Shown: one piece after another, positions 5,491 through 63,197 of the stretch
How positions within the stretch are numbered: position 1 is the stretch's first letter
Layout: the number at the start of each line of letters is the position of its first letter
Assembly (NCBI GenBank): GCA_964464475.1
Contig: CAYXGG010000001.1
Location: 87,174 to 151,173, forward strand
Source: an uncultured Planctomycetales bacterium
GTDB taxonomy: Bacteria > Omnitrophota > Gorgyraeia > Zapsychrales > JAHFFX01
Direction: 5' to 3'
Length of the DNA: 64,000 nt
Notes under the pieces: generated by a model
Databases searched by the model: none
The model's input: only the letters and a program-made list of their open reading frames with translations
Told to the model about the DNA's origin: nothing
Made by a program: the position numbers and the translations under genes

Positions 5491-5527
5491 AAAAAGCCCT
5501 CAATAAAATATTTATTGAGGGCTTTTT
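5491..5527. terminator. Bidirectional intrinsic terminator between the cupin gene and rpoN
   Basis: AAAAAGCCCTCAATAAA-ATAT-TTATTGAGGGCTTTTT forms a perfect 14-bp stem flanked by A/T runs on both sides. Confidence 0.7.
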
Positions 5528-6893
5528 ATTCTTTACGTAAATGTGATGGCAGTATGTTTAATTGCTGACGGTATTTGCTGATGGTTCGGCGGGCGATCGG
5601 CATCCCCTTTTGAGTAAAGCAATCTTGAATTTCCTGATCAGAAAGGGGGGAATGTTTATTTTCAGCGTCTATAAGATCTTTGATTTCTTCTTTAATGCCG
5701 CGACTAGATACTGTTTCGTTATTCCCATCAGATAACGCTTGAGAAAAGAAATATTTTAAAGCAACCGTCCCCAAAGGAGATTCAACGAATTTCCCTTGGA
5801 TAGCTCGACTGATGGTGGATTCATTGCGGTTGATGGCCTCAGCTACATCTTTTAGTGTCATTGGAATAATCGCTGTAGCAGTTCCTTCAAAGAAATCTTT
5901 TTGTTTCTCCAAGATGTATAGCGCGATTTGCTGAATAGTGTTCCCGCGTTGATCAACGCTTTTGATGAAGTTTATCGCGTCTTTAATTTTTTCCTTAATG
6001 AACTCACGTTCATCAGATTTGAGATTCTTATTTTCTAGCATTCTTTGATAAGTCATGTTTACTCTTAATTGGGGAATGCCATCTCGGCAGACGGAGACGC
6101 TGTAGCCTTGAAGGGGGTCCTTTTTGATAATCACGTCTGGTTTGATGTAGATGTTTGCGCTGAGGGGTCGAAAGTTTCTGGCGGGTTTAGGTTCTAAATT
6201 AGCAATCTTTTGGGCAGCTTCCTTGACCGAATCAATATTGACGCCCAGTTTGCGGGCAATATCTGAGAATTTTTTGCGACAAAGTTCATCAAAGCACTCT
6301 GTAATAATACGAGTCGCCAGGTCATGGTGTCCGCTAAAGCGAACCCGAACTTGAATCAATAAGCTTTCTTTGAGGTCTCGAGCGGCAATCCCGATAGGTT
6401 CAAAATGTTGAATAACCTCGAGCACATGCTTAACCAGATTTAGTTGTTCCGGGCAAAGCGACTCTGCGATTTCCTCGCAGGAAATGTTTAAGAAGCCGTC
6501 TTCGTTTAGATTCCCAATGATGGCTTCTCCAATTTTGAGTTGCAGAGGATCATTGAGCTCAAATTTTAGTTGTTCCAAAAGATTTTCTTCCAGGGAAAGT
6601 TTCTTGGTTAAGGGCTTTTCTTCCCATTTTTCATCATCGCTGAGGTATTCTTGTTTTTGTAGTTTAAGTTTTTCCGATTGACGCAGGGCGAATGCTTTTA
6701 ACTCAGCATCATTAATTTCAGGGCTCGGGAGAGGCGAGTTTTCTTCTATTTCCAAGAGGGGATTGTTTTGAAGTTCATGATCAATGGCTTGTGCTAATTC
6801 AGTCAGCGGTAGCTGCAAAACAGCTACTGATTGCTGAAGTAAAGGCGCCATGATTCCTTTTTGGATTTGTTTTGGAGATAAGTTAACTTTCAC
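5526..6893 (-). CDS. rpoN: RNA polymerase sigma-54 factor
   Basis: Region I is glutamine/leucine-rich (MAPLLQQSVAVLQLPLTELAQAI...NPLLE). The C-terminal RpoN box ARRTISKYR and the helix-turn-helix are present. Confidence 0.9.
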   Translation of the reverse strand: MKVNLSPKQIQKGIMAPLLQQSVAVLQLPLTELAQAIDHELQNNPLLEIEENSPLPSPEINDAELKAFALRQSEKLKLQKQEYLSDDEKWEEKPLTKKLSLEENLLEQLKFELNDPLQLKIGEAIIGNLNEDGFLNISCEEIAESLCPEQLNLVKHVLEVIQHFEPIGIAARDLKESLLIQVRVRFSGHHDLATRIITECFDELCRKKFSDIARKLGVNIDSVKEAAQKIANLEPKPARNFRPLSANIYIKPDVIIKKDPLQGYSVSVCRDGIPQLRVNMTYQRMLENKNLKSDEREFIKEKIKDAINFIKSVDQRGNTIQQIALYILEKQKDFFEGTATAIIPMTLKDVAEAINRNESTISRAIQGKFVESPLGTVALKYFFSQALSDGNNETVSSRGIKEEIKDLIDAENKHSPLSDQEIQDCFTQKGMPIARRTISKYRQQLNILPSHLRKE

Positions 6894-7024
6894 AGCAAAA
6901 AGTATACCATGAATAATTTTTGTTTGCCAAATTCAGGGTGAAATGCTGATGAAAATCGTTTAATGTTAATTTTATTGGACACGTCTTAAGTCGTTGGGTA
7001 ATATAAATTTACTCTATGTCCGGA

Positions 7025-7052
7025 TTTGTCTATGACAGTCATGTTGATTTTG
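7025..7052 (+). promoter_or_regulatory. Conserved upstream motif (candidate enhancer / PrsR-binding site), copy 1
   Basis: TTTGTCTATGACAGTCATGTTGATTTTG contains the nested palindromes TGTC-N3-GACA and ATGAC-A-GTCAT. Twenty of its first 21 nt recur at 56044. It lies about 150 bp upstream of the sigma-54 promoter at 7176. Confidence 0.5.
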
Positions 7053-7175
7053 GGCAACATAGGATTTCAATTTTAGTGTTGTGAAAATAATGATTGTTGA
7101 TAATATTGATCGTAAGTTATTTGAAATTATATATTTGCAGCTTTAAGGCAAGAAATTGTCTGGGATTGTCTAGGA

Positions 7176-7191
7176 TGGCATATATTTTGCT
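7176..7191 (+). promoter_or_regulatory. Sigma-54 (-24/-12) promoter for the EPS operon
   Basis: TGGCAT-ATATT-TTGCT matches the consensus TGGCAC-N5-TTGCW with exact GG/GC spacing. It sits 99 bp upstream of the first EPS-operon gene, and rpoN is divergently transcribed. Confidence 0.65.
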
Positions 7192-9710: not shown

Positions 9711-10604
9711 ATGTATTTGCAATATTATGGTTTTCAGGAACCGCCCTTTAATATAACGCCGAATTCGCGATTCTTTTTCGCGAGTACCAAGCATACGGAA
9801 GCATTGAATACGATGGTGTACGCTATTTCGGAGCGTAAAGGGTTTGTGGTTATTTCCGGGGATATTGGCTCTGGCAAGACAACGGTTTGCCGTACGCTCG
9901 TCAATCAGCTTGATTCTCGAACTCAGGTCGCGCTGATCACCAATACTTTGCTTAGCGGTCGGGATTTATTGACGGCTATTCTCGATGATTTGGAAATTGA
10001 TTATCGACCAGGTTCAAAAGCTAAATTATTGTCACAGCTTAACGATTATCTTATTCAACAGCTAAAAGATGATAATAATGTGGTGCTCATTATTGATGAA
10101 GCTCAGAATTTAACGCCGTCTTGTTTAGAAGAAGTACGATTGCTTTCTAATTTGGAGACGGAAAACGAAAAATTGATTCAAATTATTTTTCTCGGTCAGC
10201 CAGAGTTGAAAAAGAAATTGGCATTGGCGAGGTTAGAGCAGTTAAGGCAACGAATCGCGGTATATTATCACTTAAGTCCGTTAACGATTGAAGAAACCTT
10301 TGACTATATTTTGCATCGTTTAAAGGTGGCTAGTGGTTCAGATCGGAAGTTTTTTACTGACGGAGCGTTGGATCTTATTTACAAATTTTCTAGGGGTGTT
10401 CCCCGCTTAGTTAATCAGATTTGTGACAGTTCTTTGTTGAGTGGTTATGTCGCTGAAGCTACGATAATCGATGAGAAGATTCTACATGAAGTCATCGCGG
10501 AATCTCCTATGACGCTAATTGCTGGAGAGGTCCGAGTGTCTTCCTCTAAAGAGTCTACACCCCCAGCTGCGGAAGATTTAACTAAGCTGTATTTTAAAGG
10601 CTAG
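9711..10604 (+). CDS. AAA ATPase of the ExeA/GspA family (PEP-CTERM-locus secretion-ATPase-like)
   Basis: QEPPFNITPNSRFFF...Walker A GDIGSGKTT...Walker B VLIIDEAQNL. Only the ATPase domain is present; there is no transmembrane or peptidoglycan-binding domain. Confidence 0.75.
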   Translation: MYLQYYGFQEPPFNITPNSRFFFASTKHTEALNTMVYAISERKGFVVISGDIGSGKTTVCRTLVNQLDSRTQVALITNTLLSGRDLLTAILDDLEIDYRPGSKAKLLSQLNDYLIQQLKDDNNVVLIIDEAQNLTPSCLEEVRLLSNLETENEKLIQIIFLGQPELKKKLALARLEQLRQRIAVYYHLSPLTIEETFDYILHRLKVASGSDRKFFTDGALDLIYKFSRGVPRLVNQICDSSLLSGYVAEATIIDEKILHEVIAESPMTLIAGEVRVSSSKESTPPAAEDLTKLYFKG

Positions 10605-10611
10605 AATTTTA

Positions 10612-11376
10612 ATGAGTAAACTGATTAAGGCACAAGATTATTCCACTCGTCCCAACAAGGTTAATACTCCTCAATCACAACCTCGTGAGACGGCGCAGGA
10701 GTCGTTATCGGCTCAGGATCCCAAAACAGTTAATAGTCCGGTCCTGGATCCTGCCGCGTTAGTGATGACCGAATCAGTAGTTAGTCATGCCGCTGATGCG
10801 GTGCCTCAAGGAAATTATTTAGAAGTTGAGGAAAGTCATAAAGTTAAGAGCTTGAACAAAACGGTGATGTTTTTATTTTTCTTAATAGCATTTTTAGCTA
10901 TTTCGTTCGCGTTGATTACTTACCGTATGATGGACGAAGTGACCAAAAGTCGTGAAGCCAACCAGAAGATTGCGCAGTCTGTTGCTTTACTGGAAAATCG
11001 TCATAAAGAATTTCAACAGCGTATTCAGTTATTGTTGACTCAATCTGCTCAAGAATTTGCTGGTCTAAGAGCTCAAACTGAAGATGTGAGCAAAACTGTT
11101 CAGGCCCAGGGAAATAAACTCGTGGATATTTCTTCGGGGCAGGAATCTTTATTGTCTGACATTGTTGAGAATAAACAGCATTTGGCCAATCGGGACTTAA
11201 CGATGCAAGAATTGACTACGCAGCAAGGTGATCTAGCTGGTCGCCTGAAGGTTCTGGAGAAAGCGGCAAATGAACTGCAGAGCAGACTGAGTGAAATTAA
11301 GAGCAACCCTGTATTGACTGATCCCGCGGAGGTCTTAAGAGACGCCGATCAGCTGTTAAATAGCCCTTCGCAATAA
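10612..11376 (+). CDS. Bitopic membrane protein with a long coiled coil (possible ExeB/GspB-like partner)
   Basis: Single transmembrane segment (MFLFFLIAFLAISFALITY) followed by a heptad-rich, glutamine/leucine-rich segment. No catalytic motifs. Confidence 0.4.
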   Translation: MSKLIKAQDYSTRPNKVNTPQSQPRETAQESLSAQDPKTVNSPVLDPAALVMTESVVSHAADAVPQGNYLEVEESHKVKSLNKTVMFLFFLIAFLAISFALITYRMMDEVTKSREANQKIAQSVALLENRHKEFQQRIQLLLTQSAQEFAGLRAQTEDVSKTVQAQGNKLVDISSGQESLLSDIVENKQHLANRDLTMQELTTQQGDLAGRLKVLEKAANELQSRLSEIKSNPVLTDPAEVLRDADQLLNSPSQ

Positions 11377-25186: not shown

Positions 25187-26517
25187 CAGTGGCTGCGCTG
25201 GACAAACAACGAGTGAATTTCTTTGTCTTGGGGTTAAATATGGCAGTTGCGCTTCTGTCGCTGGCTGGGTGCTTCTATTTGCAATATTATCATCCGGCAA
25301 GCTACGCCCAACTCGTTTTGGAAGATTGTTGGGGAGAGTATGGAACGTTTTGTGCCTATTTATTGGCAGCCTTATTGCTGTTGTTGGTGATGATAAAAAA
25401 GCCGTCATTCTTTAAATTTGGCTACATTGGCTTGGCTATCGTTCTTTTTGTGATCGGCATGGAGGAAATCAGCTGGGGACAGAGAATATTAAATTTCTCA
25501 ACCCCGGAAGTCATGAAAAAACTTAATTATCAGTCCGAAGTTTCAGTTCATAATATTTTGGATAATTATTTCGATATTCAATCGTTGTTTATTTATGCGA
25601 TTAGTTTCTGGGTAATGTTAGTGCCTTGGTTGCTTAAGAAATTTGCTAGCTTAAGATACTGGTTCGAGAAGCTTGGACTTCCGGTTTTTCCTCCGGAGAC
25701 GACTCCCTTATTTCTTGTTTCTTTAGGTCTTACGATCACTGCACCGTTTATCAGTAATGATGAAATAAAAGAGTTGTTGTTGGCTTTTGCCTTTTTGTTC
25801 ATGTCCGTCATTATTTTTGGGCGTGTGTTTTCTTCAGACAAAGTGAAAAGTGTTGATGTATTGCGCCATTTGATGGTTGTCTTGATTTTGGGTGTTGTCC
25901 TGACGGGCGCCATGGTGCGTTTTTGGGGGTCAAAATGGAAGGATGAAGGGCGATTTAAGGGACAACTACATTGGATGGCGGCGATTGAATATGGGAAAAA
26001 GAATTTGCCACGTCAACAGCAACAATTGTTTGAATATATCTTGGCAGAACCACATTTTCATCGTCCAGAGACGTTGATACAATTTGGCCTTGCTTTAGCT
26101 AAACACAAAAACCCGAAAGCACAGGCAATCTTGGAGATGGCTTTGAGGCAAGAAGTGATCAAACAACAAAAAGATCCAGGGAATCCAAAATATAGTCGCA
26201 ATCTTGGTTTAATTTACTACTTGATGGGACGGGGGGATGCTTCAGTTCAGGAATTAAATTTAGCGTTAAAGAAGGGATTAGCTCATTTAGCAGAAAGCGG
26301 TCGCTCGGGGGATTTTGATCAGATCTTTTCGGTTTTTGAAACTAATATTATCCGACGTGATTATGCCGCAGCTCGAAAGAATATTGACGAAGCAACGAAA
26401 AGCGTATCGCTCAGTGAACAAGCTATTAAAGTTGAGCTTTGGGAAGAGCGCTTGGAGTCAATTGAAAAGCTTTCTTACGAACAGTTTTTGCAATTATTGC
26501 AATTTATGTATTTGTAA
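25183..26517 (+). CDS. Membrane protein (about 6 N-terminal transmembrane helices) with a C-terminal soluble helical domain; unknown function
   Basis: Hydrophobicity pattern only; no catalytic motifs. Confidence 0.4.
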   Translation: MTVAALDKQRVNFFVLGLNMAVALLSLAGCFYLQYYHPASYAQLVLEDCWGEYGTFCAYLLAALLLLLVMIKKPSFFKFGYIGLAIVLFVIGMEEISWGQRILNFSTPEVMKKLNYQSEVSVHNILDNYFDIQSLFIYAISFWVMLVPWLLKKFASLRYWFEKLGLPVFPPETTPLFLVSLGLTITAPFISNDEIKELLLAFAFLFMSVIIFGRVFSSDKVKSVDVLRHLMVVLILGVVLTGAMVRFWGSKWKDEGRFKGQLHWMAAIEYGKKNLPRQQQQLFEYILAEPHFHRPETLIQFGLALAKHKNPKAQAILEMALRQEVIKQQKDPGNPKYSRNLGLIYYLMGRGDASVQELNLALKKGLAHLAESGRSGDFDQIFSVFETNIIRRDYAAARKNIDEATKSVSLSEQAIKVELWEERLESIEKLSYEQFLQLLQFMYL

Positions 26518-44303: not shown

Positions 44304-45861
44304 ATGCTTGGTCTTTTTATTAGGAATGGTCGTCGGGGCAGGTTGCGCGGCGATAGGAGTATATAAATTATATAAAATTTACAAACATAGAAAAGTAACC
44401 TCCCAGTCCTATCGGGATGCCTCACAGTCGGTTGCTGAACATTGTGCCGAGTATCAATTAAATTTAGAAGTCGACGCGCGAAAACCCCTCCATAAGATTA
44501 GTCCACTGCTGTATGGCTCTAACCTAACTCCCAAAACGGAATACGAGAAAGACGTTATTGATTTAAGTAAAGAATTAGGAATTACGAATTTTCGTTTCCC
44601 TGGCGGCGAATCCAATGGTTATCGTTGGCAAACCGGTGATTTTGATTTTGACGATCGTTTAGATGACGCGCCGCTGTCAGATTTAGAACATGTAATTGAA
44701 TTTGTTAAGATGGGTGGCCAATCTTTAGTTATCCAAGTCAATCTAGAATCGGGGACGCCTCAGGAAGCTGCGGAATGGGTGAGGCGCATGAATAAGGTTA
44801 GCGGCTTTAGAGTTGACTATTGGGAAATCGGCAATGAGCCCTATGGGGATTGGGATCGGGCTTTCCGTTCTCCAGAAGAATATGCGGCCAACATTAGAGA
44901 TTATGCCAGGGCCATGAAAGCTGTTGATCCTACCATCAAGATTGGTGCCAGTTTAGGGGGACCCAATTATCCAGTTTTTGATCGAACCGTCATTAAAGAA
45001 GCTGGAGATTTCTTTGATTTTATTTCTTATCATTGGTATCCCAATCATACGAATAAAAACACGCCCTACTTAAATCGTTTGCATCCCTTGCCGGAAGAAG
45101 TGATGGCTAATGGGTTGGCGATTGAGCCTTTGGTAAAAAGATTCCGGCGTTTAATTGCGCGGTATGCTCCGCAGCGTGTGGACAAGATTGACATCGGTAT
45201 CCTGGAGTGGGATGGTTCTTGGGATGGCGCTGCTTCGGACCTGAATTTTGAATATAAAGGTGAAATGTGGGCGCTATCTAACGCAATCTTTTTTGCTGAT
45301 GCGTTAGGTCTGATGGCGACCCAGCAAGTGGTGTTGGCCAATCAATATTCTTATCAAGAAGTCATGCATGGCCTTATTCGCGGATGGGATCGGAAGGCCG
45401 GATGGGGTGGTAGTCGTTGGGATGGTCAGACGATCCGTCCTAAAGGCTTGGCTTTTCAATTGTTGGCTCGCTCATTTGGAAATGAGTTGCTCAGAAGTCA
45501 TTTGAGTGGCTCGCCAGCCTACAATAAAGAAACCGATTGGCGGGCAGATTCTTTTGTCGGGAAGGTTCCCTACGTGACGGCTTATGCCAGTCAATATTCG
45601 CACAACAAGAAGGTCGCAGTGCTGATTGTTAATAAGCATAGCTCCTGTGAGTTTGCCGTTAATTTAGAGGTCCAGGGGGGTAAGCTGGGGAACCTAGCAA
45701 GCTGGCAAAAGATTACCGGGCCAACGTTATCCGCTCAGAACGATGGGGCTCCCGGGACAGTTATGATCGCGCCGGGAGATGTTGCTGAACAAAAAATTCC
45801 CTCTCAGTTGAAAATTGCTCCACGATCCATAAATTTATTTGAGCTAAATTTAGAAAAATGA
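44281..45861 (+). CDS. Membrane-anchored glycoside hydrolase (clan GH-A TIM barrel; PslG/GH39-GH5-like EPS glycanase)
   Basis: N-terminal transmembrane anchor. WEIGNEPYGDW carries the catalytic acid (NEP). The (beta/alpha)8 pattern is about 480 aa. Confidence 0.6.
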   Translation: MNSSRVVRCLVFLLGMVVGAGCAAIGVYKLYKIYKHRKVTSQSYRDASQSVAEHCAEYQLNLEVDARKPLHKISPLLYGSNLTPKTEYEKDVIDLSKELGITNFRFPGGESNGYRWQTGDFDFDDRLDDAPLSDLEHVIEFVKMGGQSLVIQVNLESGTPQEAAEWVRRMNKVSGFRVDYWEIGNEPYGDWDRAFRSPEEYAANIRDYARAMKAVDPTIKIGASLGGPNYPVFDRTVIKEAGDFFDFISYHWYPNHTNKNTPYLNRLHPLPEEVMANGLAIEPLVKRFRRLIARYAPQRVDKIDIGILEWDGSWDGAASDLNFEYKGEMWALSNAIFFADALGLMATQQVVLANQYSYQEVMHGLIRGWDRKAGWGGSRWDGQTIRPKGLAFQLLARSFGNELLRSHLSGSPAYNKETDWRADSFVGKVPYVTAYASQYSHNKKVAVLIVNKHSSCEFAVNLEVQGGKLGNLASWQKITGPTLSAQNDGAPGTVMIAPGDVAEQKIPSQLKIAPRSINLFELNLEK

Positions 45862-47287: not shown

Positions 47288-47369
47288 AAGGAATAATTAA
47301 TTCTCTAACTAATTGCAGTAAATAAACTTATAATTCTGTTAGAGTTTTTAGTTATTTTCTGCTGGGGAT

Positions 47370-47397
47370 TTGACAACTGGAGGAGGGGTGCTATACT
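47370..47397 (+). promoter_or_regulatory. Sigma-70 promoter driving the riboswitch leader
   Basis: TTGACA-N16-TATACT. Confidence 0.5.
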
Positions 47398-47439
47398 TTC
47401 GGCTGAAAGAAGTTCTCGATCTTTAAATAGCTGACTGAT

Positions 47440-47580
47440 ACTAGTAAACCATTCGGAAGAGTGGGACACAAAGCTAACCATGCTTTCTAGAGGTTCTTAA
47501 GGAAGCAGGTGCTCCAGTCCGTAGATGGCTGGAGTAGGGCCTAACCCCGTGTTGTGGATGTTGCCGGGCAGGTTGCCAGT
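47440..47580 (+). promoter_or_regulatory. Candidate c-di-GMP-I (GEMM) riboswitch aptamer
   Basis: GUAAACCAUUCGGAAGAGUGGGACACAAAGC reproduces the GEMM junction elements. These are the G-CAAA junction, a P2 hairpin CCAUUC-GGAA-GAGUGG with a GNRA loop, and GAC-ACAAAGC. It is followed by a CUCCAG...CUGGAGUAGG hairpin and a CCUAACC receptor-like element. From memory it closely resembles V. cholerae Vc2 (CAAACCAUUCGAAAGAGUGGGACGCAAAGCC). Confidence 0.45.
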
Positions 47581-47641
47581 TGCCAAAGCAGAGATAAGAT
47601 CGGTTAAATTAGCCGTTGTTAAGCTTTTAACTGATAATTGA

Positions 47642-47690
47642 CCTATTCTCAAAGGCGTGTCCATGTTCCGAGAGTAGGTTTTTTTATTTT
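47642..47690 (+). terminator. Intrinsic terminator (riboswitch expression platform)
   Basis: CCTATTCTC-19 nt-GAGAGTAGG followed by TTTTTTTATTTT, 54 bp before the ATG of the beta-helix gene. Confidence 0.55.
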
Positions 47691-47743
47691 ATGAGAAAAA
47701 ATTTCATCTATTCATTATCCAGGTTTCAGAAAGGGGTGCAACG

Positions 47744-54487: not shown

Positions 54488-55306
54488 ATGCCAATTATTA
54501 GAAAATATGCCGCAGAGTTGTTGGTCGGTGGGCTTTTTTTGTTAGCCTATTTTCCTATTTTATTATGGATGTTTAGTCGTTGGTTTGCGAGAGACTCTTA
54601 CTATAGTCACGGGATATTGGTTCCTTTTGTGGCCGCTTTTTTAATCTGGCAAAATCGGGATGAATTAACTAAAATTCAGAGAGTTCCAGATTATCGTGGG
54701 CTGATATTGATTTTTATCGGTCTATTTGTTTTAGTGGTTAGTTCGACGTTAAGAATATACTTTTCAGCGGCGTTTAGTATGCCCATAGTTTTAGTTGGGC
54801 TGGTGATGCTTTTTGGGGGAAATAGTTTATTGAAGGCTCTTTCGTTCCCGCTGGCGTTCACATTATTCATGATCCCATTGCCAGAGGTCGTTATTACCAA
54901 TATTAGTTTTAATATGAAAATATTTGCGGCGCAAATTGCCACGCATGTTTTAAATAATAATCTAAGAATGCCAGCGGTACGCGAGGGGAGTCTTATTAAA
55001 ATGCGCAGTGCCTATGTCATGGTGGATGATGTGTGTAGTGGTTTAAGATCGCTTATTTCATTGACTGCTTTGGGTAGTGTTTTTGCTTACTGGTTAAAGG
55101 GCGCTTGGTGGAAGAGGTTGCTTCTATTTGCTTCAACGATCCCCATTGCCATTATTACCAATGTCGTTCGGATTATCTTTCTTTCCGCAGTGAGTGAGAT
55201 TTGGGGGCCACAATACGCTTCTGGATTTTTGCATGATCTTTCGGGGTTTTTGGTTTTTGGATTGGCCTTCTTATTATTATTTGCAGTTTCAAAGCTAATA
55301 GAATAA
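54488..55306 (+). CDS. Exosortase (EpsH/XrtA family transpeptidase)
   Basis: Eight transmembrane helices. The conserved Cys lies in MVDDVCSGLRSLISL and the Arg in ITNVVRIIFL. The N-terminus MPIIRKYAAELLVGGLFLLAYFPILLWMFSRW is typical. Confidence 0.85.
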   Translation: MPIIRKYAAELLVGGLFLLAYFPILLWMFSRWFARDSYYSHGILVPFVAAFLIWQNRDELTKIQRVPDYRGLILIFIGLFVLVVSSTLRIYFSAAFSMPIVLVGLVMLFGGNSLLKALSFPLAFTLFMIPLPEVVITNISFNMKIFAAQIATHVLNNNLRMPAVREGSLIKMRSAYVMVDDVCSGLRSLISLTALGSVFAYWLKGAWWKRLLLFASTIPIAIITNVVRIIFLSAVSEIWGPQYASGFLHDLSGFLVFGLAFLLLFAVSKLIE

Positions 55307-55307
55307 A

Positions 55308-55949
55308 ATGTTGATAAAAAAATCAGCTTATGTAGTAATTTTGGTTTCATTTTTGGGGGTCGGGTTCATTTCTTGGTTGTTGTATTTTAAAGATCAGAAC
55401 CAACAAGATACGGTTAATATTCAAGTTTTCCCGAAGGCTATAGCTGACTGGAGCGGGGTAGATCAAGTTATTAGCGAAGAAGACTATGCTATTTTGGAAA
55501 CCAGAAATGTTCTGGCTCGAAGATACACTCAGGCTGGTACGGGTCGACAAATAGATTTACTTATTGTTTATTCAGAGCATAATCGTAAAGTGTCTCATCC
55601 TCCCGAGATTTGTTTTACGGGTGGTGGGTTGTCTATTCTGGAAAGTAAGCGCGCAGTCTTAAATCTAGATAAGAACGGCCGAGGGTTAGAAGCGGTGCGG
55701 CTGCTTATGGATTTGAAGGGAACGCCGCTGTATTCCTTCTATTGGTTTAAAGTCGGTAATTCTGTAACCTCTAACTACTGGAGGCAACAATTTTTGATTG
55801 CTTTAAAGATTTTTTCTGGGCAACCGCATAGTAGCGCCTTGATAAGGTTGACATTAGAAATAAAACTGGATGACAAAATCGAAGCCGTTGCTACTGCGGA
55901 GAAGTTCGCCGATCTTGTTTTTCCTGCCGTAAAGCAGTATCTGCCGTAA
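55308..55949 (+). CDS. EpsI-family exosortase-associated protein
   Basis: N-terminal transmembrane segment then the EpsI domain, immediately after the exosortase gene (1-nt gap). Confidence 0.75.
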   Translation: MLIKKSAYVVILVSFLGVGFISWLLYFKDQNQQDTVNIQVFPKAIADWSGVDQVISEEDYAILETRNVLARRYTQAGTGRQIDLLIVYSEHNRKVSHPPEICFTGGGLSILESKRAVLNLDKNGRGLEAVRLLMDLKGTPLYSFYWFKVGNSVTSNYWRQQFLIALKIFSGQPHSSALIRLTLEIKLDDKIEAVATAEKFADLVFPAVKQYLP

Positions 55950-56043
55950 TTCTTCGCGCTGCAGAGTGCTAATTGACTAGGTTTAGGAATTTGCTGCTTT
56001 TTTTAAACATGTGTTGTGTCGGATAAACACTGGTAATGGGGTG

Positions 56044-56072
56044 TTTGTCTAGGACAGTCATGTATTTGATTG
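56044..56072 (+). promoter_or_regulatory. Conserved upstream motif (candidate enhancer / PrsR-binding site), copy 2
   Basis: TTTGTCTAGGACAGTCATGTATTTGATTG matches copy 1 at 7025 (20 of the first 21 nt identical). It lies about 127 bp upstream of the sigma-54 promoter at 56173. Confidence 0.5.
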
Positions 56073-56172
56073 TTTTGCATCTTGGGGGCTAATATTGTGC
56101 CGCAAGTATAATGATTCCAATTGTTTGTGAAATAAAAATAAAATTGCCCTAAATTTAAATAAGATTATATTT

Positions 56173-56188
56173 TGGCACAAAATTTGCT
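56173..56188 (+). promoter_or_regulatory. Sigma-54 (-24/-12) promoter
   Basis: TGGCAC-AAAAT-TTGCT matches the consensus perfectly, 47 bp upstream of ATG 56235. Confidence 0.7.
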
Positions 56189-56234
56189 CATGTACAGGTA
56201 ACCGTACGCAACCAGGTTAACACAAAGGATAAAA

Positions 56235-57059
56235 ATGAGTCGATATACTAAATTAATATTTTTGAGCATATTAGCAATTTTGACCGTGGTAAGTACTGTT
56301 TTTGCTATACCGGTTAAATCTGATGACGCTAGGGAAGTCATAGAAGAGGCAAGGATTTCTCAAATTCCGGCTCAGTTGCCAACAGATTCGAAGTCTAGAG
56401 CTCCGGAGCCCACGTCCATGGCGCTTTTTGGGAGTGGTATATTGGGGATGGTTGTCAGTTTCTTTCGTCGTACCTATATTTTGATAAAGAGAGCATTTGA
56501 TGTTTTTGCTGCGATCCTAGGTTTGCTGTTCTTGGCGCCGCTTTTTGTTATTGCCGCTTTCTTGATAAAATTTACTTCAAAAGGGCCAATTATTTATAAG
56601 CAAGTTAGAGTTGGAAAAAACGGTAAGCTTTTTGAAATTTATAAATTTCGTTCAATGCGTACGGATGCTGAAAAAGATAGTGGCCCTGTTTGGGCTAAAG
56701 CCAACGATAATCGTCTCATCCCGCCGGGAAAATTTTTAAGAAAAACCCGAATTGATGAATTACCTCAATTTATTAATGTTCTAAAAGGTGATATGAGCTT
56801 GATCGGGCCTCGTCCGGAGCGACCTGTTTTTGTTGAGAAATTTAAAGAAGTTATTCCTGACTACGAGAAGCGTCTGGCCGTCAAACCTGGGATTACGGGA
56901 TTAGCTCAAGTGTGGCATAAATATGATGAAACGATTGAGGATGTTAAAAAGAAAATTCGTTATGATTTGGTTTATATTAAAAAAGTCAATTTGTGGACTG
57001 ATTTAGGAATATTTTTTAGAACATTTCGAGTTGTTATTACTGGTCAAGGCGCTCAATAA
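56235..57059 (+). CDS. Bacterial sugar transferase (polyprenyl-phosphate phosphoglycosyl transferase, small WbaP/PglC type) with an in-frame N-terminal signal peptide plus PEP-CTERM-like motif
   Basis: Residues 1-79 form a signal peptide and ...SRAPEPTSMALFGSGILGMVVSFFRR (PEP, a transmembrane helix, then RR). This runs without a stop into IKRAFDVFAAILGLLFLAPLF...GPIIYKQVRVGKNGKLFEIYKFRSMR...GPRPERP, the sugar-transferase core. A TTG at 56481 would give a typical MIKRAFD start but has no ribosome-binding site. Confidence 0.7.
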   Translation: MSRYTKLIFLSILAILTVVSTVFAIPVKSDDAREVIEEARISQIPAQLPTDSKSRAPEPTSMALFGSGILGMVVSFFRRTYILIKRAFDVFAAILGLLFLAPLFVIAAFLIKFTSKGPIIYKQVRVGKNGKLFEIYKFRSMRTDAEKDSGPVWAKANDNRLIPPGKFLRKTRIDELPQFINVLKGDMSLIGPRPERPVFVEKFKEVIPDYEKRLAVKPGITGLAQVWHKYDETIEDVKKKIRYDLVYIKKVNLWTDLGIFFRTFRVVITGQGAQ

Positions 57060-57428: not shown

Positions 57429-57460
57429 TGATTTGATTGCTGTTGAGCTTATTGTTTAAA

Positions 57461-57497
57461 GAGGCGGCGGGTGAGATATTCACCTGTCGCCTTTTTT
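57461..57497 (+). terminator. Intrinsic terminator after the PEP-CTERM gene
   Basis: GGCGGCGGGTGA-GATAT-TCACCTGTCGCC (12-bp stem with two G-U wobbles) followed by TTTTTTTT. Confidence 0.8.
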
Positions 57498-57524
57498 TTG
57501 AATAGGCAAATTAATCTGAACTGG

Positions 57525-57552
57525 AATTGACAGCCACATGTCAAATGATAGA
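57525..57552 (+). promoter_or_regulatory. Candidate sigma-70 promoter with an overlapping inverted repeat
   Basis: TTGACA-N16-TAGAAT. The inverted repeat TGACA-gccaca-TGTCA overlaps the -35 region. Confidence 0.4.
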
Positions 57553-57609
57553 ATTAATCACAAGTCGTTGATAAATAAATAATTTATAAACTATTATAGA
57601 TAAAGAATC

Positions 57610-58479
57610 ATGCCTTCTCGAAGTAGTAAACACGTCATATCCTTACTGAAAACTGCTATTGTTGCGATAGTCGAGCATCCAATAATTTTGTTTCCTTTTT
57701 TGATTTTGGTATTTATTCAATTGTTGCTTCTAGAGGTTTTATTTTTTTCTCCGCGCTATCCTTTGTCAATATTTTTCTCCCCATTGATTCGCACTTTATA
57801 TGGAGAAGCTTTTTTACATTACCCAAACAACTTTATATTAATACCTAAACTTTTTCAATATGTGCAAATGGGGACGTACATTTTCTTTGCTAGTTATTTA
57901 ATTGGGGTATGTGTTGAAATTATTTACCTTATTAATGCCGAAAAGAAATTTACCCTAAGAGCTGTTTTTCGTAGCGTCTTGTCTAGATACGTACATTTAT
58001 TGATGGCGGCAGTAGTCATGTACGTAACGTTTTATTTATTCTTTAGTTCTTATGATGTTTTGTTGCAGCGAGCGAGAATGATTAGATCTGAAGCAGGGGT
58101 TTTCTTCTTAATAAAGGAAATAATTGTTGTTGCCACGCCTTATGTCAACCTTTTTGTAGGAGCCTTGGCGACCGCCCTATATGCATTTGTGGTTCCTTTT
58201 ATCGTGATTGACAGGAAAAAAGTATTTGTAGCAATATGGGAGAATTTTCGTTTATTAAGTAAATCATTTTGGATGGTTTTAGTCACGGTTATTCTGGCAA
58301 CAATGCTGTATTTGCCCATTTTATTTTTTCGGAATAACGTCGGCCTGTGGGCCGATGATTACTTTCCAAGTCTAAGGGTTTGGATTATTGTAATCAGTAT
58401 TATCGTTCAAGCCTTTATTGATTGCGTTATCTATTCGAGTCTAACAAGTTATTTTCTTTTTCTGAAAGAGCAGAAATGA
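57610..58479 (+). CDS. Polytopic membrane protein, unknown function
   Basis: About 8 transmembrane helices; no motifs. Confidence 0.45.
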   Translation: MPSRSSKHVISLLKTAIVAIVEHPIILFPFLILVFIQLLLLEVLFFSPRYPLSIFFSPLIRTLYGEAFLHYPNNFILIPKLFQYVQMGTYIFFASYLIGVCVEIIYLINAEKKFTLRAVFRSVLSRYVHLLMAAVVMYVTFYLFFSSYDVLLQRARMIRSEAGVFFLIKEIIVVATPYVNLFVGALATALYAFVVPFIVIDRKKVFVAIWENFRLLSKSFWMVLVTVILATMLYLPILFFRNNVGLWADDYFPSLRVWIIVISIIVQAFIDCVIYSSLTSYFLFLKEQK

Positions 58480-59384
58480 AGAAGTGCATTGTTTTTATGG
58501 TTCTTGTTTTGGGCGGGATGTTTCTTTTATTTACTGTTTTGGGTCAAGATGGTGATTATGGCGCAGAACAAGAAATGTGGATAGCTAACAAGAAATTTAA
58601 ATTAATTACTCTGGATCCGGCTAATACTCCAGATCAGGAATTTATTAGATTAGAAAAGGTTTATCGAAAAGTAATTAATCGGTACCCGAACTCGTATTTA
58701 ATTAATCAGGCGTATCTTAATATTGGAAGAATGTATGTCTATAAACGAGATTATCGACTAGCTAGAGAGAAGTATCAGGAGATAATAAGAAATTTTCCTC
58801 AAAATCGGATCCTGACATCTGAGGCTTGGATCGCGATGGGGCAGAGTTTTGAGCTGGAGGAGAACTCGCAGGAGGCATTGAGAATTTATAAAATGGTGAT
58901 TAACCAGTTTTCGGAGACTGACTCTGGGCTAATGGCTCCGCTGTATGTAATAAACTTTTTGAAGAAACTAAAGAAAGATGAGGATCTTGAGGAGTTTTTG
59001 ATTCAAGTTGAGCCGCATTATCGAAATTTAGCTAGTAAGCACAAGGGGTCAGCCTTAGAGATTAAATCATTACGTATGTTAACAAACGCTTATTTGCAGC
59101 AAGAGAAATGGGATGCCGCCGTATCTGTCTTGGGAGATATATTATTGCAGTCAATGGCTTCAAGCCAATTGACTCCACAAGAGGCAAATGTTCTTATAAG
59201 ATCAATAAACGCTATCTCAATTACTGAATTGAAGAATTATGATTTGCCGATTAAAATCTACGAAGAATTTATTGCCAGTTACCCTAACCACGGTCTTAGT
59301 CGCCTCATGAAGGAATTGATTAAAGCTTTGACTGCTTTGAAATCTCAGAAGGCGGAGTTTACTCCAAAGAGTTTTGTGCCATGA
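58476..59384 (+). CDS. Secreted TPR-repeat protein
   Basis: Signal peptide (MKKCIVFMVLVLGGMFLLFTVLG) and TPR-like helical repeats (YLNIGRMYVYKRDYRLAREKYQEIIRNFP). ATGA overlap with the previous gene. Confidence 0.55.
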   Translation: MKKCIVFMVLVLGGMFLLFTVLGQDGDYGAEQEMWIANKKFKLITLDPANTPDQEFIRLEKVYRKVINRYPNSYLINQAYLNIGRMYVYKRDYRLAREKYQEIIRNFPQNRILTSEAWIAMGQSFELEENSQEALRIYKMVINQFSETDSGLMAPLYVINFLKKLKKDEDLEEFLIQVEPHYRNLASKHKGSALEIKSLRMLTNAYLQQEKWDAAVSVLGDILLQSMASSQLTPQEANVLIRSINAISITELKNYDLPIKIYEEFIASYPNHGLSRLMKELIKALTALKSQKAEFTPKSFVP

Positions 59385-60700
59385 AAACTACTTCTGCTCA
59401 ACATTCTGAAGAGATGCTTTTGGGAAAGCCCAATGCTTTTCAAAAAGTCAGCGACATTTGTTCCGGTGTTAATTCGGTCAAAGACGAAAACGAGTTGCTG
59501 ACTCAGAATCTGGGTCAACTCTTAGAGCTATTCTCAGCCAGGAGGGGCTCGATATTTATTTTTAATGCCCGGCGAAAAGAGTTGGATCTTAAGGTATCTA
59601 AAGGAATGGCTACAGCTGAACAGAAACATTTGGTCAAGCGTATGGGGGAGGGAGTGGTTGGGAAAGTTGCAGAATTGAAGCAGCCAATTGTGGTTGATGA
59701 TATCTCTAAGGACGATCGGTTTCATAATTATCATGCTCGGGGAAGTTATCGTTCACCTTCTTTCATTTGTGCTCCTTTGTTGTTAAAAGATCAGTTGTTG
59801 GGAGTCATTAGTATCGCAGACAAAGTATCTGGACAGAGGTTTAGTAAAGATGAATTGCTTTTGCTCGACTTTTTGTCGAGTCAGATAGCCTTGAATTATA
59901 AACGGATAAAGTTATATAAGAAATTCAGAAATGTTATTAAAGAGGCGCAAAGTTTAAAGAACGCTTTGGGAAAAAAGTCCGATGAGGCTAATCAGCTCAG
60001 AAAACAGATCGTTGTTCAAGAAAAGTTTGCTTCTATTGGTAAATTGGCGGGTGGAATCGCGCATGAGTTTAATAATCCACTTGACGGGGTTATTCGATAC
60101 ACGAATCTTTCTTTAGAACATCTGAAGAATGATGATGTTGTTCGTGGGTATCTGTTGGAAATAAGGCAAGGATTGCATCGAATGGCCAATATTGTTAGGA
60201 ATTTATTGGCTTGTTCCCGAAATACTCAGGCAAGTATGCAAAAGGTTGATGTGAATCATCGAATTGAGCAGGTCGTGAATGGACTGCAGTCAGATTTTTT
60301 TATGAAGGGAATTAATTTGCGGAAGGATTTCTCTAAAGATATTCCGCTGGTCGTTGATTTAGGGTTAGACTTGATTTTCTCTAATTTACTAAGAAATGCT
60401 ATTGATGCGGTAAAATCAGGCGGTACTATAAAAATATCTACAAGGTTTGCTCAAGAAGTTCTTACTATCCGAGTTGAGGATAATGGATGCGGGATTCCCT
60501 CCGAAATGATGGAGCAGATATTTGAACCATTCTTCACCACTAAGGATATCGAGAAGGGGTGCGGTTTGGGTTTAACAATTGTAGATGAGATTGTCAAAAG
60601 TTATGGCGGGCGTATCCATTTGGAGAGTGCGCCGGATAAAGGAACGGCTTTTACGATCACATTACCAGCGAAGGTATCTACTTATGCAAAAAAACACTAA
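59381..60700 (+). CDS. Cytoplasmic GAF-domain sensor histidine kinase (PrsK-like position)
   Basis: GAF domain (GVVGKVAELKQPIVVDDISKDDRF). HisKA with the phospho-accepting His in GGIAHEFNNPL. HATPase_c N/G boxes (LRNAIDA, DNGCGIP, GCGLGL). No transmembrane segments. Confidence 0.8.
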   Translation: MKTTSAQHSEEMLLGKPNAFQKVSDICSGVNSVKDENELLTQNLGQLLELFSARRGSIFIFNARRKELDLKVSKGMATAEQKHLVKRMGEGVVGKVAELKQPIVVDDISKDDRFHNYHARGSYRSPSFICAPLLLKDQLLGVISIADKVSGQRFSKDELLLLDFLSSQIALNYKRIKLYKKFRNVIKEAQSLKNALGKKSDEANQLRKQIVVQEKFASIGKLAGGIAHEFNNPLDGVIRYTNLSLEHLKNDDVVRGYLLEIRQGLHRMANIVRNLLACSRNTQASMQKVDVNHRIEQVVNGLQSDFFMKGINLRKDFSKDIPLVVDLGLDLIFSNLLRNAIDAVKSGGTIKISTRFAQEVLTIRVEDNGCGIPSEMMEQIFEPFFTTKDIEKGCGLGLTIVDEIVKSYGGRIHLESAPDKGTAFTITLPAKVSTYAKKH

Positions 60701-62096
60701 CAATCATCTTCATATTTTGATTGTCGATGATGAGCCTTTGATACGTCAATCATTGTTTGAAAGTCTGAGGATTGAAGGTTTTCAAGCCACGATGTCGAGT
60801 AATGGCGAAGATGCCTTGGAAAAGTTAAGAAATAACAAAGTAGATATTCTATTAACTGATTTAAAGTTGCCCAAAATGTCCGGTATTCAATTGTTAGAGA
60901 AAGTTAAAAAAGACTACCCGCAAATTGAGGTGATTTTGATTACGGGATTTGGAACGATCGAGACGGCTGTTGAAGCGATGCGTAAAGGCGCTTACGACTA
61001 TATTACTAAGCCAATAAATGACCAAGAGGTGCGTTTGATTTTGCAGAAAATTGTGGAAAAGAAACAGATTCTGCAAGAAAACCAAGATTTAAAGAAAATT
61101 ATTGATAGAACGACGCCTAATTCATTTTGTAGTTTAGTCGGTCGCAGCGAGAAAATGCAGAAAGTTTATCAGATCATTGAATCAGTGGCGAGCACAAATG
61201 CGACTATATTAATTAATGGGGAGAGTGGCACGGGTAAAGGAATGACGGCTAACGCTATTCATCAAAGCGATCGACTCCGCGGCGATAAGCCATTTGTAGA
61301 GGTTAGTTGTGGGGCTTTATCGGAAACTTTGTTGGAAAGTGAGCTGTTTGGTCATGTGAAAGGGGCGTTTACGGGTGCAATTAAGGATAAGGAGGGGCGT
61401 TTTGAATTTGCCAAAGGGGGTACCATCTTTCTCGATGAAATTGACGCCTTTTCGCCTAATTTGCAGGTTAAGTTATTGAGGGTTCTTCAAGATGGGGTTT
61501 TTGAAAGAGTGGGGGATAATAAAACGCGCCACGCGGATGTGCGAATTATTGTGGCTACTAACCAAAATCTAAATGAATTGGTCGCGAAGGGGAAGTTTCG
61601 AGAGGATTTGTATTATCGCATTAATGTCATTGCCATTCCTTTGCCACCCTTAAGAGAGCGTCGGGATGATATTGAGTTTTTAGCCAAATTCTTTATTGAG
61701 AAATACAGTAAAATTAATCGTAAGTCTGTGTCTGGGCTTTCATTGGAAGCTTTGGATCTTTTTAAGGGGTACCATTGGCCTGGAAATGTTCGAGAGCTCG
61801 AAAATGCTATTGAGGGTGCTGTTATTATGGCCAAAAAAGAAATAATTCAAAAAGAGGATATTCCATCTGTTAATCGGATGTTGGAGGGGTATGGCGCTCG
61901 CTCGGCGATGGTTGGTTCGAGTTCAGATTTGGATCAATCTCTGAAGAAAAATTTAGAAACACCTGAGAAAGAACTTATTCTTGCAGTGTTAGAAGAATGT
62001 CGCTGGAATAGAAATAAGGCTGCTGAAAGGTTAGGAATTAATCGGACCACGTTGTATAACAAAATGAAGAAGTACAATATATCTTTTGATAAATAA
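60684..62096 (+). CDS. Sigma-54-dependent response regulator (NtrC family; PEP-CTERM-box regulator PrsR-like)
   Basis: Receiver domain (ILIVDDEP...D in DLKLPKMSG). AAA+ Walker A GESGTGKG, the GAFTGA motif and the ESELFGH arginine-finger region. C-terminal Fis-type helix-turn-helix (RWNRNKAAERLGINRTTLYNKMKK). Start at internal ATG 60684; the upstream part of the tracked ORF is an out-of-frame extension into the kinase gene. Confidence 0.85.
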   Translation: MQKNTNNHLHILIVDDEPLIRQSLFESLRIEGFQATMSSNGEDALEKLRNNKVDILLTDLKLPKMSGIQLLEKVKKDYPQIEVILITGFGTIETAVEAMRKGAYDYITKPINDQEVRLILQKIVEKKQILQENQDLKKIIDRTTPNSFCSLVGRSEKMQKVYQIIESVASTNATILINGESGTGKGMTANAIHQSDRLRGDKPFVEVSCGALSETLLESELFGHVKGAFTGAIKDKEGRFEFAKGGTIFLDEIDAFSPNLQVKLLRVLQDGVFERVGDNKTRHADVRIIVATNQNLNELVAKGKFREDLYYRINVIAIPLPPLRERRDDIEFLAKFFIEKYSKINRKSVSGLSLEALDLFKGYHWPGNVRELENAIEGAVIMAKKEIIQKEDIPSVNRMLEGYGARSAMVGSSSDLDQSLKKNLETPEKELILAVLEECRWNRNKAAERLGINRTTLYNKMKKYNISFDK

Positions 62097-62117: not shown

Positions 62118-63197
62118 ATGATGCCCGAAGATTTCAAAAATATGGCAACTGAGTTAATTGTTAAGGATCGGTGGGCCGGATTGCTGGCTCATTTTACCGA
62201 GGCTTTAAGAATTAATTTATTCTTAATGGATTGTGAAGGGAGGATCGTTTTACCGTCCTCTAAGGGCCGTTTTGGCAGCTCTTTGCTGGCAAATTCGGCT
62301 TTCGCTGGTGATTTGGTCTCAAATCCCGGAAATTTTCTAAAGAAATTCGTAAGCAGTAGCGGACATTACCTAGAAAATAAAATGCCTGCTGGCTTTTATT
62401 CCTATGCAATTCCGATTATTGGGAAGGATAGTGAGATTCTAGCGTATTTGATTGTTGGCCCCGTAATTATTGGACAGAGATTGGACAAACAAGATTATCG
62501 TAGTGCTGCGCGCAATATGGGTCTTGATGAGGAAGAATTTCTGGAAGTAGTTGATGAAGTAAAAGTTTTGTCTCATCTGTCGCTAAAAGCAACCCTGGAT
62601 CTTTTGGCTGAAGTGCTTGAATATGGCGTTCAAATGAATTCTCAAAAACAAGAGTTGGAGCATCTAAAGCTAAATATGGGTCTGCTTTCTGTTAAAGCTT
62701 CTCAAGAGCTCAAAGATATATATTCTTCTATATATTTTGATGAGTTGCTAGTGTCGCTTTTAGATGCGGCATTAAGTATGTCTAAAGCTGATACCGGTTC
62801 AGTCATGCTTGTTGATAAAGAAGGAAAAGGCTTGAGTATTAAAGCTTCTAGGGGGGTTTCTAAGAGTTATACGGAGAGTTCAATCATTCCATTGGGGCAA
62901 GGCTTGGCAGGTTGGGTAGTTCAACATAAAAAACCTCTTGTAATCTCTGGTGAAACTGAAAATAACCGAATTAAGCATCTTCTGAAAAGGCCAGAAATTA
63001 GGCAATCGTTGGTAATTCCGTTAGCTGTACAAAATACCATTTTGGGAGTTCTAAATTTGAGTACGTATTCAAAGGAGATCAGTATTTCTTCAGAACAAAC
63101 TTTTCAAGCAGTTTCCCACCTAGTTAGTTTAACCGCATCCGCATTGCTTAATATTCAGCAGAAAATTGAGACAGCGCCGCCTAATCAAATTGCTTAG
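62118..63197 (+). CDS. Sensor protein with an N-terminal PocR-like ligand-binding region and a C-terminal GAF domain; no output domain
   Basis: The C-terminal ~150 aa show a GAF pattern (DTGSVMLVDKEGKGLSIKASRG...LGQGLAGWVV...LVIPL). The N-terminal assignment is weak. Confidence 0.45.
   Translation: MMPEDFKNMATELIVKDRWAGLLAHFTEALRINLFLMDCEGRIVLPSSKGRFGSSLLANSAFAGDLVSNPGNFLKKFVSSSGHYLENKMPAGFYSYAIPIIGKDSEILAYLIVGPVIIGQRLDKQDYRSAARNMGLDEEEFLEVVDEVKVLSHLSLKATLDLLAEVLEYGVQMNSQKQELEHLKLNMGLLSVKASQELKDIYSSIYFDELLVSLLDAALSMSKADTGSVMLVDKEGKGLSIKASRGVSKSYTESSIIPLGQGLAGWVVQHKKPLVISGETENNRIKHLLKRPEIRQSLVIPLAVQNTILGVLNLSTYSKEISISSEQTFQAVSHLVSLTASALLNIQQKIETAPPNQIA

Follow-up and report, generated by a model that had tools for sequence, protein, structure and literature searches.

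The 64-kb window analyzed here, a stretch of 64,000 nucleotides from contig CAYXGG010000001.1 whose positions are counted from its first letter, is densely coding and contains a very large exopolysaccharide (EPS) and exosortase locus of an Omnitrophota bacterium. Two sigma-54 promoters, which we call PA and PB, are placed in large intergenic gaps, of which the window has few, and are oriented toward the genes downstream (Table 1). Behind PA lie the genes for HTH73 (a small BldC-like protein), a Wza-like exporter, a chain-length determinant, a PEP-CTERM-system ATPase and a tyrosine autokinase, followed over ca. 40 kb by genes for enzymes of sugar modification and for glycosyltransferases. The 285-bp gap that holds PB is preceded by a GT2 glycosyltransferase, an exosortase and EpsI, the last of which ends at 55949, and after this gap come a priming phosphoglycosyl transferase (PGT), a 93-aa PEP-CTERM protein, a membrane protein, a TPR protein, a GAF histidine kinase, an NtrC-type response regulator and a PocR-GAF protein. 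The present analysis concerns PB and the sequence elements upstream of it, for which an earlier note on this DNA had proposed a sigma-54 promoter and a 20-nt motif shared with PA.

For comparison, we collected two sets of loci, each consisting of the PGT or the Wza-like gene plus flanks of up to 6 kb. A PGT scan with one genome per species yielded 33 Candidatus Omnitrophota loci (L002-L034), 32 of which include DNA upstream of the PGT (all except L007), and a metagenome scan with the Wza-like protein yielded 64 export-operon loci (L082-L145). The gene order from the GT2 glycosyltransferase to the GAF protein, with the promoter between EpsI and the PGT, is kept among the PGT loci. Nearly all of the 64 metagenome loci show the order rpoN (minus strand), gap, HTH73, Wza-like exporter and chain-length determinant, and the divergent arrangement of rpoN recurs in ca. 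40 of them. HTH73 is the first gene of the export operon in about 59 of the 64 loci, always downstream of the sigma-54 promoter and usually divergent from rpoN.

Table 1. Regulatory elements and genes at the two sigma-54 promoters (positions in the window; distances with a minus sign are relative to the -24 element)
Feature	Positions	Strand	Remarks
rpoN (sigma-54)	5526-6893	-	401 bits vs cutoff of 277; divergent from PA
Distal palindrome-like site, TGTT-N10-GACA	6964-6981	unstranded	weak
Composite enhancer of PA	7017-7059	+	TGTC at 7017; TGTC-N3-GACA at 7027-7037; palindrome TGTT-N10-AACA at 7042-7059 (-134)
TGTC units TGTCTGGGAT and TGTCTAGGA	7157-7175	+	adjoin the -24 element of PA
Sigma-54 promoter PA, TGGCAT-ATATT-TTGCT	7176-7191	+	TGGCAT-N5-TTGCT, one consensus mismatch; before the HTH73-Wza-chain-length-ATPase EPS operon
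HTH73, BldC-like protein, 73 aa	7290-7511	+	MerR winged helix only; first gene after PA
Exosortase and EpsI	54488-55949		separate proteins
Perfect 18-bp palindrome TGTT-gtgtcggata-AACA	56012-56029	unstranded	at -161 from the -24 element of PB
20-mer and repeat units	56044-56065	+	units TGTCTAGGAC (56046-56055) and AGTCATGTAT (56056-56065), 10 bp each
Degenerate second palindrome ATGTA-N11-GCAT	56060-56080	unstranded	weak; from alignment with export-operon promoters; holds TGATTGT...GCAT
Sigma-54 promoter PB, TGGCACAAAATTTGCT	56173-56188	+	TGGCAC-N5-TTGCT (TGGCAC-AAAAT-TTGCT); perfect consensus
Priming PGT, 274 aa	56235-57059	+	Bac_transf domain at residues 85-268
Small glycine-rich PEP-CTERM protein, 93 aa	57147-57428	+	second gene of the sigma-54 unit
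Intrinsic terminator	57459-57500	+	17-bp GC-rich stem and T8; -39.3 kcal/mol, z = -5.9
Sigma-70-like promoter TTGACA-16-TAGAAT, extended TG	57527-57554	+	11/12 matches; consensus match only; before the regulatory genes
Membrane protein, unknown family	57610-58479	+	syntenic with the kinase and regulator genes
TPR protein	58422-59384	+	syntenic with the regulator genes; directly upstream of the kinase
Soluble histidine kinase, 439 aa	59381-60700	+	GAF, HisKA and HATPase domains
NtrC-type response regulator (enhancer-binding protein)	60585-62096	+	receiver, AAA+ (GAFTGA) and Fis-type HTH domains; conserved part from ca. 60708
PocR-GAF sensory protein	62118-63197	+	last gene of the regulatory block

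The match of PB to the sigma-54 consensus is indeed perfect, as the earlier note had stated, with the GG (56174-56175) and GC (56186-56187) dinucleotides 10 nt apart, and it is the only perfect TGGCACN5TTGCW on either strand of the 64 kb, where ca. 0.04 would be expected from base composition. Transcription is predicted to start around 56198-56200, upstream of an AAGGA ribosome-binding site (56224-56228), and 47 nt separate the -12 element from the start codon (ATG) of the PGT at 56235. What lifts PB beyond chance, though, is its conservation across loci and not the match in a single sequence. The check that the earlier note had proposed, conservation at orthologous loci, gave a clear result: TGGCAY-N5-NTGCT is found upstream of the PGT in 32/32 Omnitrophota species loci with upstream DNA, and 359 kb of PGT loci contain 35 matches on both strands, of which 30 are at the orthologous position (one further match, in L031, likewise lies upstream of the PGT). 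Similarly, the element precedes the orthologous export operon in 41 metagenome loci, and 41 of the 42 matches on both strands of the export-operon loci (296 kb) are located upstream of HTH73. PB thus combines the GG/GC spacing with an intergenic, co-oriented position near a gene and with conservation in orthologous loci, and the window itself encodes both rpoN and an AAA+ activator with the GAFTGA motif. As judged from these comparisons, PB is an evolutionarily conserved sigma-54 promoter with an upstream enhancer that it has in common with PA. Two other candidates in the window, a third TGGC-N7-TTGCW match at 25364 and a site with one mismatch at 44935 on the minus strand, fall within coding sequence, have no enhancer motifs and were set aside as chance matches.

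The extent of the transcription unit behind PB is set by the intrinsic terminator after the small PEP-CTERM gene which, together with the sigma-70-like promoter that follows it, divides the PGT and this gene from those for the membrane protein, TPR protein, histidine kinase, enhancer-binding protein and GAF protein. The sigma-54 unit is therefore most simply composed of the PGT and the PEP-CTERM protein. The earlier note had placed exosortase substrate genes and the EPS-priming enzyme under the same sigma-54 and enhancer-binding-protein control as the assembly and export operon, for which the conserved promoters, common motifs and syntenic regulators do speak, but owing to the terminator PB would control only one small PEP-CTERM gene in addition to the PGT.

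The most widely conserved element upstream of the two promoters is a TGTT-N10-AACA palindrome that was missing from the earlier note and is perfect at both PB and PA. In the form TGT-N12-ACA, it occurs in 24 of the 33 PGT upstream regions compared to an expectation of 0.04 per 200 bp. Among distinct export-operon loci it is present in 37 of 43, at a median position of -135 and mostly between -132 and -138, with outliers near -124, -117 and -145 that are about one helical turn off. The ca. 100 bp between palindrome and promoter are not conserved in sequence at the export-operon loci, and conserved spacing across an unconserved intervening sequence is as predicted for an enhancer that acts by looping. 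At PGT loci without TGTC arrays (see below), the palindrome is the sole conserved upstream element and lies at -137 to -147; arrays are missing, for instance, at L004, L006, L012, L017, L019, L020, L022, L024, L026 and L027. The palindrome at 56012-56029 is probably where the enhancer-binding protein attaches as an upstream activator.

Closer to PB lies the 20-nt core that had been proposed to recur at 7025. The 20-mer TTTGTCTAGGACAGTCATGT at 56044-56063 does have a copy, TTTGTCTATGACAGTCATGT, at 7025-7044, though with one mismatch (19/20 identical), and 100 shuffles gave zero 20-mer matches with up to three mismatches. Local alignment lengthens the likeness to TTTGTCTAKGACAGTCATG(TAT)TTGATT before it ends within ca. 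28 bp, and the TGATTGT...GCAT part that had been counted with the core is only loosely shared. The proposed distance of about 127 bp fits the first TGTC, which is located at -127, while the 20-mer and the -24 TGG are 129 bp apart from start to start. Rather than being a unit of its own, however, the 20-mer is the middle part of a composite enhancer in which direct repeats are combined with a palindrome. The first of its two repeat units doubles as a palindrome TGTC-N3-GACA (56046-56056) and the second one reads AGTC at PB. Across the PGT loci, TGTC on the plus strand is enriched between -160 and -100, with 31 occurrences in the -120 bin compared to about two in background bins, and its reverse complement GACA is not enriched in the PGT upstream regions. 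Of 38 pairs of neighboring TGTCs at these loci, 25 have a spacing of precisely 10 bp, and TGTC-N6-TGTC arrays of two to four units, present in ca. 20 species loci, are almost confined to regions upstream of sigma-54 promoters. In the window, repeats of the form TGTC(Y/W)(W)(R)G are found at 56046-56065, 7017-7037 and 7157-7175. A strict TGTC-N3-GACA was also considered as the conserved unit, but it is missing from most PGT loci and was given up in favor of the direct-repeat description.

At PA, the 7025-7044 copy of the 20-mer falls inside the composite enhancer of the export operon. There, 41 distinct loci align nearly without gaps as TTTCC-N5-TGTCCTGGT-N-TGTCC-N-GGACAG-NN-ATGTT-N-ATTCTTTTAAACA, and the 20-mer corresponds to the TGTCyrGGACAgnnATGT centre of this consensus. 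TGTC repeats and the TGTT-N10-AACA palindrome are common to both promoter classes and constrained in position, with the repeats upstream of the palindrome at PA and downstream of it at PB. An nhmmer model of the export-operon enhancer (112 positions) matches the window at 6962-7051 (E = 1.3e-6) but is weak at the TGTC part of the PGT loci and not significant at 56044, so that the two promoter classes share elements and not a colinear module, an idea that we accordingly dropped. The TGTC units next to the -24 element of PA are found in few orthologues only (e.g., L091, L123 and L125) and could be an autoregulatory operator. Overlapping the distal palindrome-like site is a sigma-70-like pair of TGGACA (6976-6981) and TAATAT (6999-7004) with a 17-nt spacer, in a layout that resembles glnAp1/glnAp2; since this pattern is present in only 8 of 40 export-operon loci, a sigma-70 promoter overlapping the enhancer deserves no more than a weak note.

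Two proteins encoded in the window are candidates for binding these elements. The response regulator has a Sigma54_activat domain (229 bits) with VKGAFTGA and a Walker A motif as well as the receiver aspartate, and the recognition helix of its HTH domain, LGINRTTLYNKMKKY, is nearly invariant in orthologues with or without TGTC arrays; other species likewise keep its gene, that of the histidine kinase and rpoN in synteny with the promoter. HTH73 is covered by the Pfam MerR domain at residues 18-55 and has no coiled-coil. Its best matches in the PDB are BldC-DNA complexes (6AMA, E = 6.5e-6; 6AMK, E = 1.6e-5) and otherwise one full-length MerR regulator, and it is conserved in 59 of the 64 export-operon loci with 49-87% identity and an invariant KRDWRGWRVY wing.

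With a probability of roughly three in four, we propose that PB is functional and drives a two-gene unit from a composite enhancer as at PA, with the response regulator on the palindrome and HTH73 on the repeats. The response regulator, phosphorylated by the adjacent soluble GAF histidine kinase, would bind the TGTT-N10-AACA palindrome and reach the sigma-54 holoenzyme through DNA looping, so that the composite enhancer ca. 100-165 bp upstream would activate PB, and the same vocabulary would be used at PA. We assign the palindrome to the response regulator because the recognition helix is nearly invariant irrespective of TGTC arrays, because the palindrome is the sole element where arrays are missing, and because the repeats switch sides between PA and PB. 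The TGTC arrays are assigned to HTH73 because phased direct repeats of variable number would suit a BldC-like protein. HTH73 would bind these 10-bp repeats head-to-tail and, being the first product of PA, might then connect the two operons in an architectural or feedback role. That it polymerises along the TGTC repeats beside the activator palindrome, as an IHF-like architectural or feedback part of Omnitrophota sigma-54 enhancers, is a tentative idea, which we hold to be possible but by no means the likelier outcome. The assignment of proteins to elements, the dependence on RpoN and the direction of any HTH73 effect are what we infer from sequence only.

Several observations weigh against parts of this proposal. 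HTH73 reaches just 31.1 bits with the NCBIfam BldC model NF033787, which has a cutoff of 77, and a number of loci carry HTH73 without clear TGTC repeats (L082, L122, L134, L136 and L137). At PB itself, the AGTC of the second repeat unit departs from the pattern and the palindrome downstream of it is degenerate. When scanned alone with NCBIfam, the DNA-binding domain of the regulator comes out as a generic Fis-type HTH that points to no particular family, and its site cannot be predicted on this basis. We also found no terminator between EpsI and the enhancer (z = +1), so that read-through from upstream may add to PGT expression. Furthermore, PilR of Pseudomonas aeruginosa, an activator of the NtrC family, reportedly binds four tandem (N)4-6(C/G)TGTC repeats upstream of the sigma-54 promoter of pilA (Jin, Ishimoto and Lory 1994).

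Such a PilR-like mode of binding is the basis of an alternative that leaves promoter and enhancer unchanged and has the response regulator occupy the TGTC repeats, with the palindrome bound by another factor such as HTH73 or a nucleoid protein. The repeats do sit at a classical enhancer distance (-130 to -95) with 10-bp phasing, and synteny joins the gene of the response regulator to the promoter. Nevertheless, ca. 10 PGT loci have the promoter, the palindrome and a syntenic regulator with the same recognition helix but no TGTC array. The two promoter classes also have their repeats on opposite sides of the palindrome, and at the export-operon loci it is the spacing between palindrome and promoter that is constrained. 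Activators with a Fis-type HTH generally bind inverted repeats as dimers, and our literature search did not confirm the PilR precedent. We therefore regard this exchange of roles as unlikely, albeit worth keeping in mind.

Two further explanations would do away with the enhancer altogether. The conserved block might be an RNA element (a leader, small RNA or riboregulator) made from a sigma-70-like promoter, with the palindromes as hairpins, given that the block of the export operon is conserved over ca. 110 bp including the palindrome "loop" ATTCTTTTA and that TGGACA-N17-TAATAT precedes it in the window and in the same 8 of 40 loci. However, the pattern is missing from the other 32 loci, the putative stems are only 4-5 bp long, and both putative helices lack compensatory changes, with departures left uncompensated and pairing no better than in shuffles. 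The enhancer regions have no Rfam match, and element order and number differ between the promoter classes, which fits protein sites and not an RNA fold, leaving an RNA element very improbable. Even less credit is due to the view that the 20-mer is a coincidence or a recently copied intragenomic repeat (mobile or REP-like, or spread by gene conversion) of no regulatory meaning, with only the -24/-12 promoter, or not even that, being significant. It is true that the two copies in the window, at 19/20 identity, are closer to each other than to the orthologous copies in other genomes. Yet the core TGTCyrGGACAgnnATGTT is found at the orthologous position in ca. 40 independent metagenome loci, TGTC arrays recur across species, the position of the 20-mer relative to the -24 element is constrained, and the 64 kb hold no further copies of the 20-mer, whose likeness stops where the alignment ends. 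Conservation effectively refutes this view.

The proposed arrangement of a palindrome bound by the response regulator and repeats bound by HTH73 can be compared to several known systems, first of all the PrsK/PrsR/PrsT system of Proteobacteria. According to Haft et al. 2006 (PMC1569441), PEP-CTERM genes of Proteobacteria have in front of them a 17-nt motif with TTTACA at its end and, ca. 63 nt downstream of this motif, a sigma-54 motif; the site was found in Proteobacteria only, and its phylogenetic profile matches PrsR, PrsK and PrsT. For Aquincola, RpoN dependence of the PEP-CTERM gene pepA has been shown by experiment (PMC9850573). The locus described here likewise is an exosortase/EPS locus in which a large intergenic region contains an activator motif followed by a sigma-54 -24/-12 motif, and in which a TPR protein, a histidine kinase and an NtrC-type response regulator are linked and a priming sugar transferase is included. 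As in the PrsK/PrsR/PrsT system, the TPR protein is encoded together with kinase and regulator near exosortase and EPS genes in conserved synteny. However, the TPR protein (58422-59384) does not match a PrsT model, and the 260 bp in front of PA and of PB contain no TTTACA and no TGTAAA, its complement. TGTT-N10-AACA and 10-bp TGTC repeats are found there instead of the 17-nt motif, and the spacer of ca. 100-130 bp is about double that of the site of Haft and colleagues. The response regulator scores 411.6 bits with the PrsR model TIGR02915 (cutoff 502.6) and higher with the AtoC model (456.5 bits), still below the AtoC cutoff, and the kinase gives 96.8 bits with the PrsK model TIGR02916 (cutoff 300) in its catalytic part only. 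Unlike PrsK, which is a transmembrane protein, it is soluble and bears a GAF domain. The system further differs in its phylum, in the presence of the same enhancer at an export and assembly operon, and in the BldC-like protein alongside. By these comparisons, it is a phylum-specific version of a regulatory scheme known from Proteobacteria, outside of the PrsK/PrsR/PrsT family.

The upstream activating sequence of NifA is TGT-N10-ACA, and glnAp2 carries NtrC sites. The elements described here resemble both in combining a TGT...ACA dyad more than 100 bp from a -24/-12 promoter, a distance constrained by helical phase and an AAA+ activator with GAFTGA, but differ in the TGT-N12-ACA spacing and the additional direct-repeat array; by profile models, the response regulator is neither an NtrC nor a NifA equivalog. 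Tandem TGTC repeats with a spacing of roughly one turn upstream of a sigma-54 promoter are likewise reported to characterize the PilR region of pilA, though with a type IV pilin as target in place of EPS and PEP-CTERM genes. In the Omnitrophota the palindrome is more widely conserved than the repeats, and the response regulator does not resemble PilR in particular.

BldC binds head-to-tail to direct repeats of ca. 9 bp, which vary in number, and bends DNA (PMC5859096). HTH73 resembles BldC of Streptomyces as a MerR-type winged helix of ca. 70 aa that stands alone, and the TGTC arrays are direct, phased and composed of two to four units, but the repeat consensus of BldC is AATTNNNN(C) and not TGTC. 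The arrays nonetheless are a natural candidate for the DNA target of a BldC-like protein, and such a possible partner at a sigma-54 enhancer would be the most interesting point of this system. We know of no case in which BldC acts at sigma-54 enhancers. If HTH73 does polymerise on the repeats as such an enhancer component, EPS export, the priming enzyme and exosortase substrates would be coupled in a feed-forward circuit, with a new enhancer architecture and the first function of a BldC-like protein outside of Actinobacteria.

Omnitrophota are uncultured and mostly ultra-small bacteria, and to our knowledge nothing about their regulation has been established by experiment. In our literature search, no paper connected Omnitrophota to exosortase, to PEP-CTERM or to sigma-54. 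The two sigma-54 promoters, the palindrome, the phased repeats and the candidate trans factors would outline a concrete regulon that takes in EPS export, priming as the committed step, and a substrate of the exosortase. This would extend the idea of a "PEP-CTERM box" put forward by Haft and colleagues to another phylum, with different cis elements and sensors, and argues for either an ancient origin or repeated evolution of the link between sigma-54 and exosortase/EPS systems.

The PGT itself has an unusual composition in its N-terminal part (residues 1-84), which combines a signal peptide and a variable region of 30-60 aa with a PEP-CTERM-like module, APEPTSMALFGSGILGMVVSFFRR (residues 56-80; Pfam PF07589, 21.7 bits vs a cutoff of 20.7), that directly precedes the monotopic catalytic domain in a consistent membrane topology. 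The module closely resembles the sorting signal PEPTSMALLGTGMAAMALYRKFKK of the next gene, and this architecture of signal peptide and PEP-CTERM-like module is kept in essentially all of the 33 Omnitrophota orthologues. The exosortase might thus recognise or cleave the priming enzyme, a fusion that could physically or proteolytically link the exosortase to the start of polysaccharide synthesis. No paper describing a fusion of PEP-CTERM signal and PGT was found in our literature search. The exosortase encoded upstream passes only the general 8TM_EpsH model (179.8 bits vs a cutoff of 105.55) and stays below the cutoffs of all named subtypes, with XrtD, XrtW and XrtA as the nearest ones, so that it may represent an unclassified subtype.

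In some Omnitrophota the two operons appear to adjoin each other. A sigma-54 site directly follows the GAF gene of the regulatory block in one species locus (L025, position 12418), and rpoN does so in another (L026, positions 10299-10790).

Elsewhere in the window, a 456-bp intergenic region (47288-47743) before the gene of a 943-aa protein with DUF4215 repeats contains a sigma-70-like TTGACA-N17-TATACT near 47372 and a long GC-richer leader with a T-run at its end. No Rfam family matches this leader. It folds slightly better than shuffled sequences do (z = -2.8) and may represent a leader or small RNA of a kind not yet characterised. The DUF4215 protein was also considered and set aside, having neither a PEP-CTERM sorting signal nor a sigma-54 site upstream. 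Close to the start of the window, a 705-aa open reading frame (239-2356) fuses hydroxymethylbilane synthase, uroporphyrinogen-III C-methyltransferase and uroporphyrinogen-III synthase domains (HemC-CobA-HemD) and is followed by hemB and hemL.

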